64,000 bases of DNA from a virus (Duplodnaviria > Heunggongvirae > Uroviricota > Caudoviricetes > Schitoviridae). Positions 13,603-16,803 of the stretch are shown piece after piece (position 1 is the first letter of the stretch; each line of letters begins with the position of its first letter). The notes below the pieces were generated by a model. The model made no database searches. It had not been told where the DNA came from and saw nothing but the letters and a program-made list of their open reading frames with translations. Made by a program: the position numbers and the translations under genes. Where the stretch lies: the IMG/VR virus record IMGVR_UViG_3300047463_000135, positions 1 through 64,000 of that record; one strand, 5' to 3'.

Positions 13603-13866
13603 ATGAATGCATACTGGCTTACAGCTATTATCTTCATGGTTCTTGTTGGTACTACCTGTGCTCTGTTAATTAAACACTGGCCTCCTCTACGAGACTCAAA
13701 TGACATTGAGTTTGCGTGGGGTTGTGCCTTTGTATTAACAGTTGTATGTGGCCTTGCATGGCCTGCATTTATTGTAATAGCCATTATCGTATTTGCGATC
13801 TGGCTTCTATACACAGCAATCAACAAGCTAATTAACAAACGTAAAGGAAACAAAGATGCTTCGTAA
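13603..13866 (+). CDS. Small membrane protein (2-3 TM)
   Basis: 87 aa, hydrophobic. Confidence 0.4.
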   Translation: MNAYWLTAIIFMVLVGTTCALLIKHWPPLRDSNDIEFAWGCAFVLTVVCGLAWPAFIVIAIIVFAIWLLYTAINKLINKRKGNKDAS

Positions 13867-14671
13867 AATCGCATTAGGGTTCATCATGGCTGCTTCTGTA
13901 GCTATGACTGCATGTAGCCCGGTTACTAAAGTTACTGACGCAGAAGTTGGTATCCGTACTACATTCTCTGGTGAGATTGAAGACAAGGTCTTAGACCAAG
14001 GCTTCCACCAAGTTGTAGTAGGTGATGTAACCAAGGTATCTAAGCGTAACCTTATCTTAGAAGTTAAAACCAATCCTATTACAGTAGAGAAAGTACCAAT
14101 GGCTGCTTTCGTTACTAAAATCAACTACGGTATTGTTCCTGCAAATGCTGCTATCGCATATAAGACTGAGAAATCTCAGAACTTAGATAACGATGGCGAA
14201 GTCATGTTGTTAGGTAAATATATCAGTGACATTACAGATGCTTCTGTACAGACTGCTGTAAGCAAGTACAAGGCATTAGAAGTCAATGATAACCGTACAG
14301 CAATTGAAGCTGCTATTAAGGATGAACTTAATAAGCGTCTCAAGCTTGCAGGTAAAGATCGCTTCGTTACTGTTAATGAAATTAACGTATTAGAAGTTAA
14401 ACCACACGCATCAATTGTTGCTTCCTCTTTAGCAATCGTTAATAGTCAGAATGCTTTGAAAACAAAGCAGAATGAGTTAGAAACAGCTAAGGTAGAAACG
14501 GAAGTTAAGCGTGTATTAGCAGAAAATGCATCTGAAAAGTACATTGACTTGCAACGTGCAGAAGCTGAATTAACTAAAGCTCAAGCACTTAAAATTGCTG
14601 CTGAAAAGGGTACATTAAACTCAATGGTCATCGTGCCTGAAAAGTTTAGTTCTCTTGGTGCAATTAAATAG
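13856..14671 (+). CDS. Lipoprotein (signal peptide with lipobox MTAC) with a long helical C-terminal region; possibly SPFH/band-7-like
   Basis: N-terminus MLRKIALGFIMAASVAMTAC; coiled-coil C-terminus. The family assignment is tentative. Confidence 0.45.
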   Translation: MLRKIALGFIMAASVAMTACSPVTKVTDAEVGIRTTFSGEIEDKVLDQGFHQVVVGDVTKVSKRNLILEVKTNPITVEKVPMAAFVTKINYGIVPANAAIAYKTEKSQNLDNDGEVMLLGKYISDITDASVQTAVSKYKALEVNDNRTAIEAAIKDELNKRLKLAGKDRFVTVNEINVLEVKPHASIVASSLAIVNSQNALKTKQNELETAKVETEVKRVLAENASEKYIDLQRAEAELTKAQALKIAAEKGTLNSMVIVPEKFSSLGAIK

Positions 14672-14724
14672 AGTCCTTCGGACTCTTGACTGATTTGTGA
14701 TTCTCTTATAGGATCTCAAATCTT

Positions 14725-14808
14725 GGAAGATAGCGTACTGGGTACAAAGCGGTTTTGAACGCCGTGCTGTCCTAACGGGCAATAGTTCGATTCTATTATC
14801 TTCCGCCA
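14725..14808 (+). tRNA. tRNA-Ser(TGA), class II with long variable arm
   Basis: Acceptor GGAAGAT/ATCTTCC, T-arm AATAG-TTCGATT-CTATT, anticodon loop TTTGAAC, long variable arm, G73, encoded CCA. Confidence 0.6.
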
Positions 14809-14809
14809 T

Positions 14810-14885
14810 ACTACACTAACTCAGTTGGTAGAGTAGCAGACCGATAATCTGTTAGTCCTTGGTTCGAGTCCAAGGTGTAGTACCA
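14810..14885 (+). tRNA. tRNA-Ile(GAT) (anticodon loop CCGATAA, C at position 33)
   Basis: Acceptor ACTACAC/GTGTAGT, D-arm ACTC-AGTTGGTA-GAGT, T-arm CTTGG-TTCGAGT-CCAAG, encoded CCA. Confidence 0.7.
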
Positions 14886-14887
14886 AT

Positions 14888-14962
14888 TGCCGTATAGCTC
14901 AATGGTAGAGCAGCACACTGTTAATGTGTTGGTTACTGGTTCGAGTCCAGTTTCGGCAGCCA
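14888..14962 (+). tRNA. tRNA-Asn(GTT)
   Basis: D-arm GCTC/GAGC, anticodon arm GCACA-CTGTTAA-TGTGT, T-arm ACTGG-TTCGAGT-CCAGT, G73, encoded CCA; one acceptor-stem mismatch. Confidence 0.65.
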
Positions 14963-14968
14963 TCTTCT

Positions 14969-15042
14969 AGCGATGAAGTGTAATGGTTACACGCTTGGCT
15001 CATAACCAAGAGTATTAGGTTCAATTCCTAACTTCGCTTCCA
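14969..15042 (+). tRNA. tRNA-Met(CAT) (elongator-type, or Ile2 if modified to lysidine)
   Basis: D-stem GTGT/ACAC, anticodon arm CTTGG-CTCATAA-CCAAG, T-arm TTAGG-TTCAATT-CCTAA, encoded CCA. Confidence 0.65.
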
Positions 15043-15049
15043 TATATTT

Positions 15050-15119
15050 AGATTACCCTCTGAGAGGAACAAGGTCTCCAAAACCATGTAGCTAGGTTTG
15101 ATTCCTAGGTAATCTGCCA
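15050..15119 (+). tRNA. tRNA-Trp(CCA), short (70 nt) with a reduced D-arm
   Basis: Acceptor AGATTAC/GTAATCT perfect, T-arm CTAGG-TTTGATT-CCTAG, anticodon loop CTCCAAA, encoded CCA; D-arm is noncanonical. Confidence 0.5.
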
Positions 15120-15121
15120 AA

Positions 15122-15607
15122 CAGTACGTGACTGGAGTCTGGTTATCAGTCTTCGTTTGGAACGAAAGTATGAACATTAGAACTTGTAGCAAGTGTGATG
15201 TTGAATACGAGCACTATGGTCAGAAGCACTCAGTATGTAGACCTTGTAAAAGAATCTATGACAGAGAGCAATATGCAAAAAAGACCAAGGAACAAAAGGA
15301 ACATAAACAAGAATTACAGAAACAGCGTTATATCCAAAATCGCCAATATATGTATGATTATTTAAGTACCCATCCTTGCGAAGTATGCGGAGAGTCTGAC
15401 CCAGTAGTACTTGAATTTGATCATTTAGATCAATCAACAAAACATACTGCAGTTGGCCTAATGGCTGACTACTCCTTAACTAAGATTAAGGAAGAAATTG
15501 CAAAGTGCCGTGTTCTATGTGCTAATTGTCATAAGAGACATACAGCAATCCAGATGGACTGGTACAAGCACTTGGTTCGGTAGGTTCAAATCCTACCGTA
15601 CTGACCA
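15122..15607 (+). tRNA. tRNA-Pro(TGG) interrupted at the variable-loop position by about 400 nt encoding an HNH endonuclease (5' part 15122-15168, 3' part about 15575-15607)
   Basis: 5' part: CAGTACG acceptor, ACTG/CAGT D-stem, and anticodon hairpin CTTCG-TTTGGAA-CGAA(A)G. 3' part: T-arm GTAGG-TTCAAAT-CCTAC, acceptor CGTACTG perfectly complementary to the 5' part, A73 and CCA. Confidence 0.55.
15170..15583 (+). CDS. HNH homing endonuclease
   Basis: CxxC...CxxC zinc motifs and the HNH core EFDHLDQ...N...CANCH. The start is taken at MNIRT (15170) because the longer ORF from 15128 would overlap the tRNA 5' half; the stop codon lies inside the tRNA T-stem. Confidence 0.7.
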   Translation: MNIRTCSKCDVEYEHYGQKHSVCRPCKRIYDREQYAKKTKEQKEHKQELQKQRYIQNRQYMYDYLSTHPCEVCGESDPVVLEFDHLDQSTKHTAVGLMADYSLTKIKEEIAKCRVLCANCHKRHTAIQMDWYKHLVR

Positions 15608-15609
15608 AA

Positions 15610-15687
15610 GGATCATTGAAGGGAATTGGTATACCTTCTAGTCTTAGATACTAGAGCTTCTGAGTTCGAGTCTCAGATGATCCACCA
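15610..15687 (+). tRNA. tRNA with anticodon TAG (Leu-like decoding of CUA), but class I structure with a short variable loop
   Basis: Acceptor GGATCAT/ATGATCC perfect, D-stem AAGG/CCTT, anticodon arm CTAGT-CTTAGAT-ACTAG, T-arm CTGAG-TTCGAGT-CTCAG, A73, encoded CCA. Confidence 0.6.
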
Positions 15688-15702
15688 AATTCTATATACT
15701 AG

Positions 15703-15727
15703 CCCGTCTTTATGATGGGCTTTTTGT
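15703..15727 (+). terminator. Rho-independent terminator (AGCCCGTC...GATGGGCT + TTTTT) closing the tRNA cluster
   Basis: Read directly. Confidence 0.65.
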
Positions 15728-15757
15728 TGTAAATCATTTCGTGCTTCGCACGATGTT

Positions 15758-16072
15758 GTGGAGTCCGTTATGGGTATCAAACCTACAGGTGTCTGGGTAA
15801 CAGCAGACAAACTACAAGATTTACATAGACTAGGCTATGAAGAGCTTGGCGGTAGTCTAGGGGATGGATTACATATGATATATGTATTCTTATCCGATTT
15901 AAAAATACTTCAACTAGGTGAAATAAGTTTTCAAACTGAACGTGCACCTTTAGTTGTGCGTAATTTAGATTTACTACCTCAATTATCATTGCTGTTTCAA
16001 ACAGGATTATATGAAGCTATCATTGAGATAGTTCATTCAGAATTAAACCAAGGCCAAGAGGATGATCAGTAA
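15758..16072 (+). CDS. Hypothetical protein
   Basis: 104-aa ORF. Confidence 0.4.
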   Translation: MESVMGIKPTGVWVTADKLQDLHRLGYEELGGSLGDGLHMIYVFLSDLKILQLGEISFQTERAPLVVRNLDLLPQLSLLFQTGLYEAIIEIVHSELNQGQEDDQ

Positions 16073-16803
16073 CAGGTGATCTGCAGTCCCTGTACGCTGT
16101 TTGCGGATATGGTAACTTATCCTAGGCATACTAGTTCCCCTTGGTTTAATAAAGTAGAGAGACGCGGTAATCGAATCCGCCTTGTAGTTTAACGAAAACA
16201 CTCTACGCCTAGACAGTATGACTCGCTCTACTGTCATTCCACCTATGGATTAAATAGGTCAATAAGAACCACTCAACGATCACTACTACAGCCTTGTGCT
16301 AACGTATATCTGCGGTGTGTGTTCTTATTGGGATGTGAATATGCGAACCTGAATATGAGAATAGTAGCCGTTAGCCTAGTAGGTGGAACGTGAGGGTACT
16401 CATTACAGAATGAGGGCTTTACTACAGTTAATCCCATAGAGTACGAGTGTTATAGACTTCGGCTTGAAACTTACAGAGACTCGCAATCTCTGGTATTCAC
16501 ATCACCAATGAGAACACAGCTTGACCCCGGCTTTAGGGGTGCTCACTGGCCCTAGCATGTGGCTTATCACTTGCCCTCGCTCCTTAGGGTATACCTCGGT
16601 GACGATCTTCCTCATTAAGTTTTTATTCGTATGGGATTAATGATAGAGCGTGTAACGTGCAGACAGGGTAAACAACGCCCCATTAGCAGAATAGTCCACT
16701 GTGTCGATACGGACTCTCGAATTCCCAATCAACCCCTCAAGTAGAGCTGTAGTTCTACTTTTTATAGCCCATAAGTCTAACCTCTAGCTTATGGGCTTTT
16801 TTT
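16073..16803 (+). ncRNA. Candidate large structured noncoding RNA (about 730 nt, GC-elevated, ORF-free, terminator at its 3' end)
   Basis: The plus strand has no ORF of 60 aa or more; many local hairpins; the region ends in the strong intrinsic terminator at 16776-16803 and sits beside the tRNA cluster. Confidence 0.3.
16776..16803 (+). terminator. Rho-independent terminator (AGCCCATAAG...CTTATGGGCT + T8)
   Basis: Read directly. Confidence 0.7.

Follow-up and report, generated by a model that had tools for sequence, protein, structure and literature searches.

The window analysed here, the whole stretch of 64,000 nucleotides, comes from an N4-like Acinetobacter phage and contains a tRNA operon in which a tRNA-Pro(UGG) gene is split into two parts by an open reading frame (ORF) for a predicted HNH homing endonuclease (Table 1). 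The only promoter-like site in the region from 14500 to 15900 precedes the operon, which makes co-transcription of the HNH ORF with the tRNAs probable. The atypical tRNA-like gene of the operon was identified as mtRNA-Trp(cca) by ARAGORN in the mitochondrial mode and folds as a cloverleaf with a D hairpin of 4 bp and 3 nt; it was missed by the standard ARAGORN and Rfam tRNA runs. The order of tRNA-Pro and tRNA-Leu(tag) is also present in the Acinetobacter phage Mithridates.

Table 1. Positions of the features of the tRNA operon and of the split tRNA-Pro(UGG) gene in the window.
Feature	Position	Strand	Description
Sigma-70-like promoter	14686..14714	+	TTGACT-17-TAGGAT; ahead of the tRNA operon
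tRNA genes Ser(tga), Ile(gat), Asn(gtt), Met(cat)	14725..15042	+	ARAGORN, Rfam tRNA
Atypical tRNA-like gene	15050..15119	+	Anticodon CCA (Trp); reduced D arm
tRNA-Pro(UGG) 5' part	15122..15169	+	Acceptor strand, D arm, anticodon arm, start of variable loop
5' acceptor strand	15122-15128	+	CAGTACG
D stem	15131-34 and 15147-50	+	ACTG/CAGT
Anticodon stem	15151-55 and 15163-67	+	(C)TTCG/CGAA(A)
Anticodon loop	15156-62	+	TTTGGAA; anticodon TGG at 15158-60
HNH homing-endonuclease ORF	15170..15583	+	137 aa; ATG 15170-72, TAG 15581-83
tRNA-Pro 3' part	15580..15607	+	T arm, 3' acceptor strand, A73, CCA
T arm	15580-96	+	GTAGG-TTCAAAT-CCTAC
3' acceptor strand	15597-603	+	CGTACTG
A73	15604	+	
CCA	15605-07	+	
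tRNA-Leu(tag)	15610..15687	+	Directly 3' of the split tRNA-Pro; ARAGORN
Intrinsic terminator	15701..15731	+	End of the tRNA operon

Reconstruction of tRNA-Pro(UGG) from the two parts

The 5' part, corresponding to tRNA positions 1 to ~47, was assigned to tRNA-Pro on the basis of its sequence, virtual splicing and homology to the intact alleles of L012, L016 and nACB1. The two acceptor strands are complementary at 7 of 7 positions, and the halves described in the first-pass annotation were confirmed by their sequence, by this pairing and by virtual splicing to a tRNA-Pro. The split had been placed at the variable loop; it is near it, but the site is the boundary between the variable loop and the T stem (tRNA position 48/49 or 49/50) and not inside the variable loop proper. 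The stop codon of the ORF lies within the T stem, as had been noted.

The locus as it stands encodes no contiguous cloverleaf, and no call was made on it by ARAGORN or by the Rfam tRNA model. After the in-silico deletion of 15173-15580 (408 nt), a tRNA-Pro(UGG) of 78 nt was called by ARAGORN, and a tRNA-Pro(tgg) from 15122 to 15607 was obtained for essentially any junction in 15164-15175 and 15566-15581. Virtual splicing at the ATG|TAG junction gave a clean 78-nt cloverleaf, in which the pairing of the halves is good except for a C27-A43 mismatch. The joined tRNA matches the intact viral tRNA-Pro of L012 in 69 of 79 aligned columns, an intact tRNA-Pro is present in the same tRNA cluster of the N4-like relative nACB1, and the split is repeated in two independent metagenome contigs (L013 and L014); the match between the halves is therefore not a matter of chance. 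Unrelated halves had been named in the first-pass annotation as an outcome that would overturn its reading; judged from these alignments, the halves are two parts of a single tRNA-Pro gene. A second tRNA-Pro gene was not found in the 64-kb window by ARAGORN.

A second 5' half hidden in the 3' end of the ORF was also considered, and none was found on reading 15532-15607. Immediately before the T stem, the heptamers TGGTTCG (window) and TAGTTCG (L013 and L014) agree with the acceptor strand CAGTACG in 4-5 of 7 positions, with p of about 0.01 before multiple testing; L017 lacks the match. This weak similarity might conceivably be what is left of a further tRNA copy that has lost nt 8-48.

Search for introns, ribozymes, tmRNA and RNA folds

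The Rfam search for a group I core, proposed in the first-pass annotation, was performed on both strands of 14000-16500 at E<=10, and no match to Intron_gpI or to any other intron or ribozyme family was obtained; only ordinary tRNAs and chance matches (YrlA, SNORD72) were returned. A group I or group II intron was ruled out by this result together with the ORF, which fills the whole interval between the tRNA halves and, as had been pointed out, leaves no room for a ribozyme core. A group I tRNA intron is also unfit by its site, which is position 48/49 and not the anticodon loop. The folds predicted for the window, L013 and L014, the three split units, contain no bulge-helix-bulge at the junctions. 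No tmRNA was found in the window by ARAGORN, nor was there any Rfam tmRNA match in 14000-16500; a "tmRNA" called by ARAGORN in Ep020 was rejected as an artefact, its "tag" being the C-terminus of the HNH protein.

In the MFE fold of the 486-nt RNA, the acceptor stem and the T arm are both formed. Forcing the cloverleaf costs 18 kcal/mol relative to it, because in the MFE fold the D region is paired with the 3' end of the ORF. A long-range helix between nt 9-40 of the 5' half and the last ~30 nt of the ORF was predicted in all three split copies and was rejected as unsupported: it stems from a shared GACTGG hexamer, is not backed by covariation, and has a length (9 bp) for which about 0.4 helices would be expected by chance.

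The HNH endonuclease ORF

In the closest intact tRNA-Pro alleles, the ATG and TAG of the ORF fall on A47-T48-G49 and T50-A51-G52, respectively. Its assignment as an HNH endonuclease, made in the first-pass annotation, is based on the match of its product to PHROG 2255 (HNH endonuclease; E=1.7e-32), on annotated phage homologues and on the conserved CxxC...DH...N...CxxCH residues, which are invariant in the family and all present; in Pfam, no HNH match was obtained at E<0.1. A search of the PDB sequences with the family profile gave no match at E<=1. Homologues of the HNH protein numbered 364, and distant members of the family adjoin tRNA-Thr in Felix O1 and tRNA-Asn in Myrna. The nucleotide identity between the ORF and that of L013 is 77.6%, and the differences are distributed as 18, 12 and 60 over codon positions 1, 2 and 3 (of 134 each), which points to strong purifying selection on the HNH enzyme.

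Association of HNH homologues with tRNA-Pro genes

The genomic neighbourhoods of 21 full-length HNH homologues (>=45% identity) were compared, and nearly all of the 21 touch a tRNA-Pro(UGG) gene. In 12 homologues the ORF is directly upstream of an intact tRNA-Pro, which abuts or overlaps the 3' end of the ORF as a tRNA-Pro(tgg) in L015, L018, L019, L021, L099, L005, L101, L106, L102 and L026, and was missed by ARAGORN at the same place in L003 and L023. At least three of these 12 (L015, L018 and L019) also bear 5' tRNA-Pro remnants upstream of the ORF; that of L015, although incapable of function, is preserved as well as the 5' half in the window. An intact tRNA-Pro lies 9-35 nt upstream of the ORF in L017, L020 and L100, two of which (L017 and L100) carry 3' remnants, consisting of the T arm and the acceptor strand, after the ORF stop. 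Only debris of tRNA-Pro is present in L022 and L103, and the same split as in the window occurs in L013 and L014, with unrelated flanks. In some members of the family the flanking halves are lacking and the ORF lies simply between tRNAs. From this distribution, the lineage most likely targets tRNA-Pro genes in phage tRNA clusters.

In a neighbour-joining tree, the split, remnant-bearing and restored forms make up one clade, which is nested among the forms upstream of an intact tRNA-Pro. Together with the junctions that these forms share, the tree suggests descent of the clade from a split ancestor. Further split copies were searched for in several ways. The search of viral contigs with the single HNH protein gave one distant locus, the D-arm pattern search gave only the intact L016 allele, and the pattern TGGTAY-N{6,21}-TAGGTTCRANTCC gave irrelevant loci only, among the matches listed. 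Among the matches listed in the search of metagenome contigs no HNH relative was closer than 57%, and the relatives obtained from genome contigs were all in MAGs, with identities of 49% or below.

Intact alleles and mosaic halves

Comparison with related phages lacking the HNH gene, as had been proposed, led to nACB1, in which the T arm and the 3' acceptor strand of the intact tRNA-Pro are almost identical to those of the window, while the relatives XC38 and At2 have no tRNAs at the cluster site. The HNH insertion is sporadic, being present or absent at an otherwise homologous site in related genomes. Nearly identical intact alleles occur in L012 and L016. The closest intact alleles read AATATG|TAGGTTC at the putative target, and the L012-type allele contains CGAAGAATATGTAGGTTCGAGTCC.

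The 3' part of the window is nearly identical to that of nACB1, L010, L011 and L012, and it is identical at 28 of 28 positions in L013 and L014, that is, in all of the known split copies (n=3, two of them nearly identical). Between the window and L013, the tRNA halves differ at 5 of 71 positions as compared with 60 of 134 third positions of the ORF (Fisher p=6e-9). Two causes are proposed for this conservation: intact functional alleles have been captured, or have converted the halves, again and again, and selection has favoured arms that match the target. The same pattern would also be expected if a working tRNA were under selection. The modules of L013 and L014 are 98.5% identical in the ORF, and their homology ends exactly at the tRNA borders, with unrelated flanks beyond, which fits a signature of mobility.

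The anticodon stem of L013 is chimeric, with a 5' strand (CTCGG) like that of L016 and a 3' strand (CGAAT) of the HEG-proximal type, and only two of its five pairs are left, compared with four of five in the window and in L014. The junction-proximal variable loop has 5 nt in the intact alleles, as against 4 nt in the window and 6 nt in both L013 and L014. L015 and L018 bear remnants of different allele types although their HNH proteins are 73% identical, and the remnant allele types as a whole do not follow the HNH tree. The exon halves accordingly look like mosaics of existing alleles.

Discussion

The element in the window is likely to be an intron-less homing endonuclease gene (HEG) specialised on tRNA-Pro genes, with the tRNA halves as its portable homology arms and the tRNA itself disabled. 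This interpretation is built on the anatomy of the locus, the association with tRNA-Pro, the intact alleles, the repeated split in different flanks, the debris and the purifying selection. In a mixed infection, the enzyme would cut an intact tRNA-Pro at or near the boundary between the variable loop and the T stem, where the putative target in the closest alleles is ...AAT ATG|TAG GTTC..., and the break would be repaired from the copy that carries the HEG. The flanking tRNA halves would serve as short homology arms that are present in many phages, so that the element could enter otherwise unrelated genomes. The ORF would come to lie in frame between the positions of the tRNA's own ATG and TAG and be co-transcribed with the tRNA operon. 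The insertion would disable the tRNA-Pro gene, a loss that may be tolerated because tRNA genes are accessory in this phage group.

Two readings, a tRNA disrupted by homing-endonuclease invasion and a tRNA with a processed intervening sequence, had been left side by side in the first-pass annotation. The former is favoured by the lineage tied to tRNA-Pro that leaves fragments behind, by the intact un-invaded alleles and by the broken chimeric anticodon stem of L013, and for the latter no positive support was obtained. The split tRNA is most likely a casualty of the invasion and not a new kind of intron.

It is conceivable, though rather unlikely, that the halves serve the mRNA of the endonuclease, as a tRNA-like clamp of acceptor pairing, T arm and CCA by which RNase P and the 3' processing enzymes would be recruited; the HNH message would then be cut out of a tRNA precursor with its ends protected, and this could be added as a further layer to the HEG explanation. 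The ORF, situated within a tRNA operon, lacks its own promoter. The RNA is predicted to fold with its 5' and 3' ends closed, and the 3' part does not vary among the three split copies. Since the ORF directly adjoins or overlaps tRNA genes in many homologues, the ends of the mRNA must be set there by tRNA processing. External guide sequences, made of a 3' acceptor strand plus CCA, can direct RNase P. Engineered tRNA-mRNA fusions also mature in E. coli (PMC10794150). Against these points, no covariation stands behind any long-range pairing, family members without flanking halves apparently persist, and the T stem must melt during translation because the stop codon of the ORF lies inside it.

A tRNA that is still functional would be a far more important finding, but it is quite improbable. 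The 408-nt interval would have to be removed and the halves ligated by a non-ribozyme pathway, or a two-piece tRNA-Pro would have to arise after trimming by host RNases, its halves being held by the 7-bp acceptor stem and by contacts between the D and T loops. The complementarity of the acceptor strands is perfect, C1-G72 and A73 agree with the identity elements of bacterial tRNA-Pro, and the site of insertion is the single position at which a long extra arm is found in class II tRNAs. The conservation of the halves well above the synonymous sites of the ORF would agree with function, but the L015 remnant is equally well preserved. The acceptor stem and T arm are closed in the MFE fold, but the cloverleaf-constrained fold lies 18 kcal/mol above it. 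The window offers no other tRNA-Pro gene. In relatives, the intact tRNA-Pro beside the HEG and the leftover fragments argue that the insertion is disruptive. The variation in the junction-proximal variable loop and the loss of pairs in the L013 anticodon stem also speak against function, as does the lack of any ribozyme or intron signature and of a bulge-helix-bulge at the junctions; bacteria are not known to have a tRNA splicing endonuclease (EndA). On the other side, engineered split tRNAs mature and are aminoacylated in E. coli (PMC10794150). By an equally slim chance, the whole might be a natural tRNA-mRNA chimera, in which the HNH message is a giant "variable arm" of tRNA-Pro, folded via the acceptor stem and the T arm and matured by RNase P and the 3' processing enzymes into a working two-piece or re-joined tRNA-Pro, or prolylated as a whole; if true, it would be the first route to a discontinuous tRNA in the bacterial world that depends on neither a protein nor a ribozyme. 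Finally, two unrelated tRNA-like fragments, complementary by accident and placed around an ordinary gene, would account for the silence of the tRNA detectors on the locus as it stands, but this reading has practically no probability and is refuted by the virtual splicing and the comparison with intact alleles, given the 69 of 79 matching columns, the identical split in L013 and L014 and the nACB1 gene.

With the HEG explanation, the lineage follows one tRNA species across very different phages (their hosts and sources being Acinetobacter, Pseudomonas, Variovorax and metagenomes) and can sit inside the gene, with no intron to mend the damage. A short, universally conserved RNA gene could thereby act as the portable landing pad and homology arm of a selfish element in mosaic genomes, which would account for orphan tRNA halves and "missing" tRNAs in phage annotation. 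The module of ~490 bp would be a compact system for the trade-off between the spread of an element and the damage to a host gene, and natural "repaired" variants exist, in which a partial tRNA duplication restores the gene.

Comparison with known systems

The literature search turned up no report of a phage tRNA gene with an HNH gene inside it. "Genes in pieces" arise by insertion of free-standing HEGs, as with mobE in nrdA of the Aeromonas phage Aeh1 and with the split gp43, and like these the present gene is split by an inserted HEG without an intron. Those are protein genes whose two products reassemble, whereas the split gene here is a tRNA gene, for which reassembly is hypothetical. In the relative XC38, the RNAP2 gene is likewise in two pieces around an endonuclease gene.

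Group I introns occur in several bacterial tRNA genes, among them that of Synechocystis tRNA-fMet, whose intron encodes I-Ssp6803I. The I-Ssp6803I gene resembles the present case as a homing endonuclease gene inside a bacterial-type tRNA gene, but elements of its type are in the anticodon loop and restore the tRNA by a self-splicing ribozyme, whereas here there is none and the site is the boundary between the variable loop and the T stem. The split tRNAs and tRNAs with non-canonical introns of archaea (Nanoarchaeum and others) share the discontinuity at a non-anticodon position; they use a bulge-helix-bulge, a splicing endonuclease and a ligase, none of which is evident here. HNH endonucleases of the phage T5 tRNA region (F-TflI, F-TflII and F-TflIV) were reportedly described by Akulenko et al. 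in 2004. These and the Felix O1 and Myrna homologues are, like the present gene, HNH genes interspersed among phage tRNA genes, but they lie between tRNA genes and the one in the window lies inside one.

Engineered split tRNAs were assembled, matured and aminoacylated in E. coli even with the 3' half fused to an mRNA of 1.5 kb (PMC10794150). Such an stmRNA is like the window RNA in having an mRNA joined to a tRNA part, and was itself matured and acylated in E. coli, but it is synthetic, is split at the anticodon and was not used in translation. For the Vibrio N4-like phage pVa5, ARAGORN set to permit introns as long as 3000 bases gave an "interrupted tRNA-Stop", which the authors flagged as a possible artefact (PMC5746245).

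The HEG of T4 SegB is free-standing and located in a tRNA cluster; the enzyme cleaves within tRNA genes and has GGTTCRANTCC, a T-stem-loop DNA motif, as its recognition sequence (PMC2330249). Rearrangements are driven by microhomology of the segB 3' end with the 5' end of a tRNA (PMC13096335). The likeness consists in a selfish endonuclease gene in a phage tRNA cluster that related phages lack, and SegB further has a DNA target inside tRNA genes that includes the T-stem-loop motif, its gene being co-inherited with flanking tRNA sequence. SegB is, however, a GIY-YIG enzyme and not a predicted HNH nuclease, its gene sits between tRNA genes and leaves them intact whereas the HNH gene is inside one, and it recognises many tRNA genes whereas the close relatives of the HNH protein are tied to tRNA-Pro(UGG). 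HEGs in phage tRNA clusters being known, the HNH lineage inside tRNA-Pro is mainly a variant of homing of the T4 SegB type.

Structure of the split tRNA-Pro gene

The tRNA operon of this N4-type phage was searched with ARAGORN and Rfam, by which Ser(tga), Ile(gat), Asn(gtt), Met(cat) and, further down, Leu(tag) were called, with no call from either at 15043-15609. The first-pass annotation had described a 5' part, an ORF and a 3' part with complementary acceptor strands at 15122-15607, and the sequence bears this out: the acceptor strands of the two pieces are complementary at 7/7 positions (CGTACTG versus CAGTACG), and after in-silico deletion of the interval a tRNA-Pro(tgg) spanning 15122-15607 was called by ARAGORN with nearly any junction. 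With the ATG/TAG junction (15173-15580 removed, 408 nt) the joined sequence folded as a clean cloverleaf, 78 nt long, in which the variable loop has 4 nt.

Features of the tRNA operon and the split tRNA-Pro gene
Feature	Position	Strand	Description
SPFH/Band 7 domain protein gene	13856-14671	+	Directly upstream of the tRNA operon
Promoter-like site of the operon	14686-14714		
tRNA operon	14725-15687		
Rfam YrlA (Y RNA-like) match	14838-14938	+	Below threshold (30 bits; gathering score 69), across tRNA-Ile and tRNA-Asn
tRNA-like gene, anticodon CCA (Trp)	15050-15119	+	ARAGORN mitochondrial mode only (mtRNA-Trp); D arm cut down to CCTC-TGA-GAGG hairpin; T loop TTTGATT, without C56; 3' end GCCA
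5' piece of tRNA-Pro	15122-15169		Acceptor strand CAGTACG, D arm, anticodon arm with loop TTTGGAA (anticodon UGG)
137-aa ORF	15170-15583		ATG at 15170, TAG at 15581-15583
3' piece of tRNA-Pro	15580-15607		T arm GTAGG-TTCAAAT-CCTAC, acceptor strand CGTACTG, A73, CCA
Intrinsic terminator of the operon	15701-15721		

The YrlA match is most likely a by-product of the two neighbouring tRNAs, and the CCA(Trp) gene may be a tRNA whose D arm is minimal or a pseudogene that has degenerated. The nearest DNA relatives of the window, the minus strand of which carries a 3385-aa ORF, are the Schitoviridae Acinetobacter phages nACB1 and XC38 and the related Acinetobacter phage At2. The SPFH/Band 7 gene keeps its position in all three, with or without tRNAs after it. 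Since XC38 and At2 have no tRNAs at the operon locus and nACB1 has four, this phage group can do without the tRNA genes.

An intact tRNA-Pro of viral contig L012 (CAGTATG-TG-ACTG-GAAAGGTT-TCAGT-CTTCG-TTTGGAA-CGAAG-AATAT-GTAGG-TTCGAGT-CCTAC-CGTACTG-ACCA) is identical to the virtually spliced window gene at 69/79 aligned columns, and a second intact allele, in contig L016, agrees in D arm and T arm. Among sequenced phages the nearest to this one is nACB1, in which the corresponding cluster, behind the SPFH-domain gene, includes an uninterrupted tRNA-Pro(tgg); the T arm and 3' acceptor strand of that gene nearly match those of the window. These comparisons identify both pieces as parts of one tRNA gene and place the insertion at the boundary of variable loop and T stem (48/49 or 49/50), close to, though not exactly at, the variable-loop position first proposed. 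This boundary reads AAT ATG/TAG GTTC in L012 and nACB1, so the start and stop codons of the ORF coincide with triplets already in the target; the ATG may be that of the tRNA or may have come with the element, which would then be joined at a TATG microhomology. In homologue L099 the leader (GGAGTTAGTATG) is similar to a sequence of L013 (CGAATAAGTATG), a metagenome contig with the same split. The 7 nt just 5' of the T stem, TGGTTCG at 15573-15579 and TAGTTCG in L013 (653-659) and in L014, the other such metagenome contig, are similar to the 5' acceptor strand CAGTACG, and a minihelix between them and the 3' strand is conceivable; they may have been left by a second copy of the tRNA after loss of nt 8-48.

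The HNH ORF and its homologues

The ORF was matched by PHROG 2255 'HNH endonuclease' (E=1.7e-32) and had no significant match in Pfam; its annotated phage homologues are named HNH endonuclease or endonuclease VII, and the CxxC...DH...N...CxxCH residues are invariant among close relatives. Differences from the 80%-identical L013 copy number 18, 12 and 60 of 134 at codon positions 1, 2 and 3, respectively, which indicates purifying selection on the protein.

Homologues were collected from GenBank phages, IMG/VR, metagenomes and the protein database, and flanks were read for every listed match that was full-length and reached 45% identity. An intact tRNA-Pro(UGG) follows the ORF directly in 12 (Pseudomonas phage Ep020, Variovorax phage V45v66, L015, L018, L019, L021, L023, L026, L099, L101, L102 and L106), commonly with its first 10 nt inside the ORF, and lies 9-35 nt before it in three (L017, L020, L100); two keep tRNA-Pro debris only (L022, where the ORF is fused to a 5' half and a T arm is lacking; L103, a 35-nt 5' fragment), and the exact window-type split recurs in L013 and L014. 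Leftovers of tRNA-Pro around the homologues are frequent. In L015 the ORF is preceded by a full 5' half with acceptor, D arm and perfect anticodon arm, and the intact tRNA-Pro downstream has the same 5' acceptor strand; in L018 a window-type 5' half is cut off after its initial 24 nt, where the ATG is joined to it; in L017 and L100 the stop codon, which in L017 likewise lies within TAGGTTC, is followed by an orphan T arm, 3' acceptor and CCA. More distant homologues adjoin other tRNAs, namely Thr (Felix O1), Asn (Myrna) and Arg/Trp/Cys (metagenomes). In the neighbour-joining tree, split, remnant-bearing and restored forms make up one clade nested among forms upstream of an intact gene. Judged by these neighbourhoods, the HNH family appears to target tRNA-Pro genes.

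ARAGORN fails to call the tRNA-Pro(UGG) of Ep020 (L003, about 2190-2267), an intact but odd gene with T loop AGCGTAA, with which the HNH ORF overlaps at its 3' end; the 'tmRNA' that it calls there instead (1943-2345) is false, its 'tag peptide' being the HNH C-terminus. Anticodon-TTA (ochre-suppressor type) tRNA genes occur in the tRNA clusters of the HNH-bearing phage contigs L015 (3186-3282) and L022 (1641-1716).

Signs of mobility and probable fate of the tRNA

Similarity among L013, L014 and the window begins at tRNA position 1 and stops at CCA, and the flanks of L013 and L014 are unrelated. Their ORFs are 98.5% identical (6/402 positions differ), whereas their 5' halves differ at 3/43 positions (Fisher p=0.047). 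The L013 anticodon stem combines a 5' strand resembling the L016 allele (CTCGG; CTCGC in L016) with a 3' strand of the ORF-adjacent type (CGAAT), as would be expected of a co-conversion boundary within the stem; with 2/5 pairs left, this copy is read as a dead tRNA. Between L015 and L018 the HNH proteins are 73% identical, yet the allele type of the remnant is L012-like in the former and L016/window-like in the latter, which suggests that arms were swapped with resident alleles and did not merely co-diverge with the enzyme.

The element is probably an intron-less homing endonuclease gene specialised on tRNA-Pro(UGG) genes, and of the two readings offered by the first-pass annotation, disruption of the tRNA by endonuclease invasion is favoured by the family's tie to tRNA-Pro, the remnants and the broken L013 stem. 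The enzyme would cut intact alleles near the T-stem boundary, repair would copy the ORF with the tRNA halves as homology arms, as the mobility signatures suggest, and the insertion would disable the tRNA. A cost of disruption is suggested by the variants in which a partial duplication restores an intact tRNA-Pro beside the element.

The halves might in addition act in cis for the endonuclease mRNA, an unlikely extension that is compatible with invasion. When the 486-nt unit is folded to its MFE, acceptor stem and T arm close in each of the three split copies, with the D region paired to the last ~30 nt of the ORF. The corresponding predicted long-range helix, 15130-15161 with 15549-15578 (UAUCAGUC / GACUGGUA), occurs in all three; it depends on the common GACTGG and lies within chance expectation, no covariation was found for the predicted pairings in the three copies, and this pairing is probably due to chance. 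The Asp codon behind GACTGG is confined to the split clade (QMDWYK/QLDWYK), most other homologues having GWYK. Engineered split tRNA-mRNA fusions are matured and charged in E. coli (PMC10794150), so an RNA-level role of the halves keeps a small chance.

That a discontinuous tRNA-Pro still functions is very improbable, even though the same fusions speak for it. The strongest argument for retained function is the conservation of the halves, which differ between the window and L013 at 5/71 positions against 60/134 third codon positions (p=6e-9), the 28-nt 3' part being the same in all three split copies. The sequence by itself is compatible with retained function and with allele capture and arm selection alike. 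We think that repeated capture of functional alleles and selection on the element for target-matching arms would explain it better, because the plainly useless L015 remnant is equally preserved and the L013 stem is broken. Against function also stand the penalty of 18 kcal/mol for a cloverleaf forced on the 486-nt unit, the lack of a bulge-helix-bulge in the predicted folds of the three units, and the junction-side variable region of 4 nt in the virtually spliced window gene, 6 nt in L013/L014 and 5 nt in intact alleles, an inequality not expected of a constrained splice junction. A self-splicing intron is unsupported: as had been anticipated, there is essentially no room for a ribozyme core, the ORF occupying the whole interval, and no intron or ribozyme family matched at E<=10 (Rfam, 14000-16500).

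Comparison with known systems

No published description of an HNH gene within a phage tRNA gene was found in the literature. Group I introns that carry endonuclease genes in bacterial tRNA genes differ from the window element in their site and in possessing a ribozyme. The closest system is T4 SegB, which recognises a T-stem-loop DNA motif and cuts within tRNA genes (PMC2330249), and for which rearrangements linked to tRNA/segB microhomology are documented (PMC13096335); SegB, however, sits between tRNA genes and belongs to a different nuclease family. In logic, the nearest analogue is the protein gene split by a homing endonuclease gene. The RNAP2 gene of XC38 (L179, 2852-4926), annotated as gp87 and gp85 with an 'endonuclease' CDS (gp86) between these two parts, is another endonuclease-split gene in the phage group of the window.
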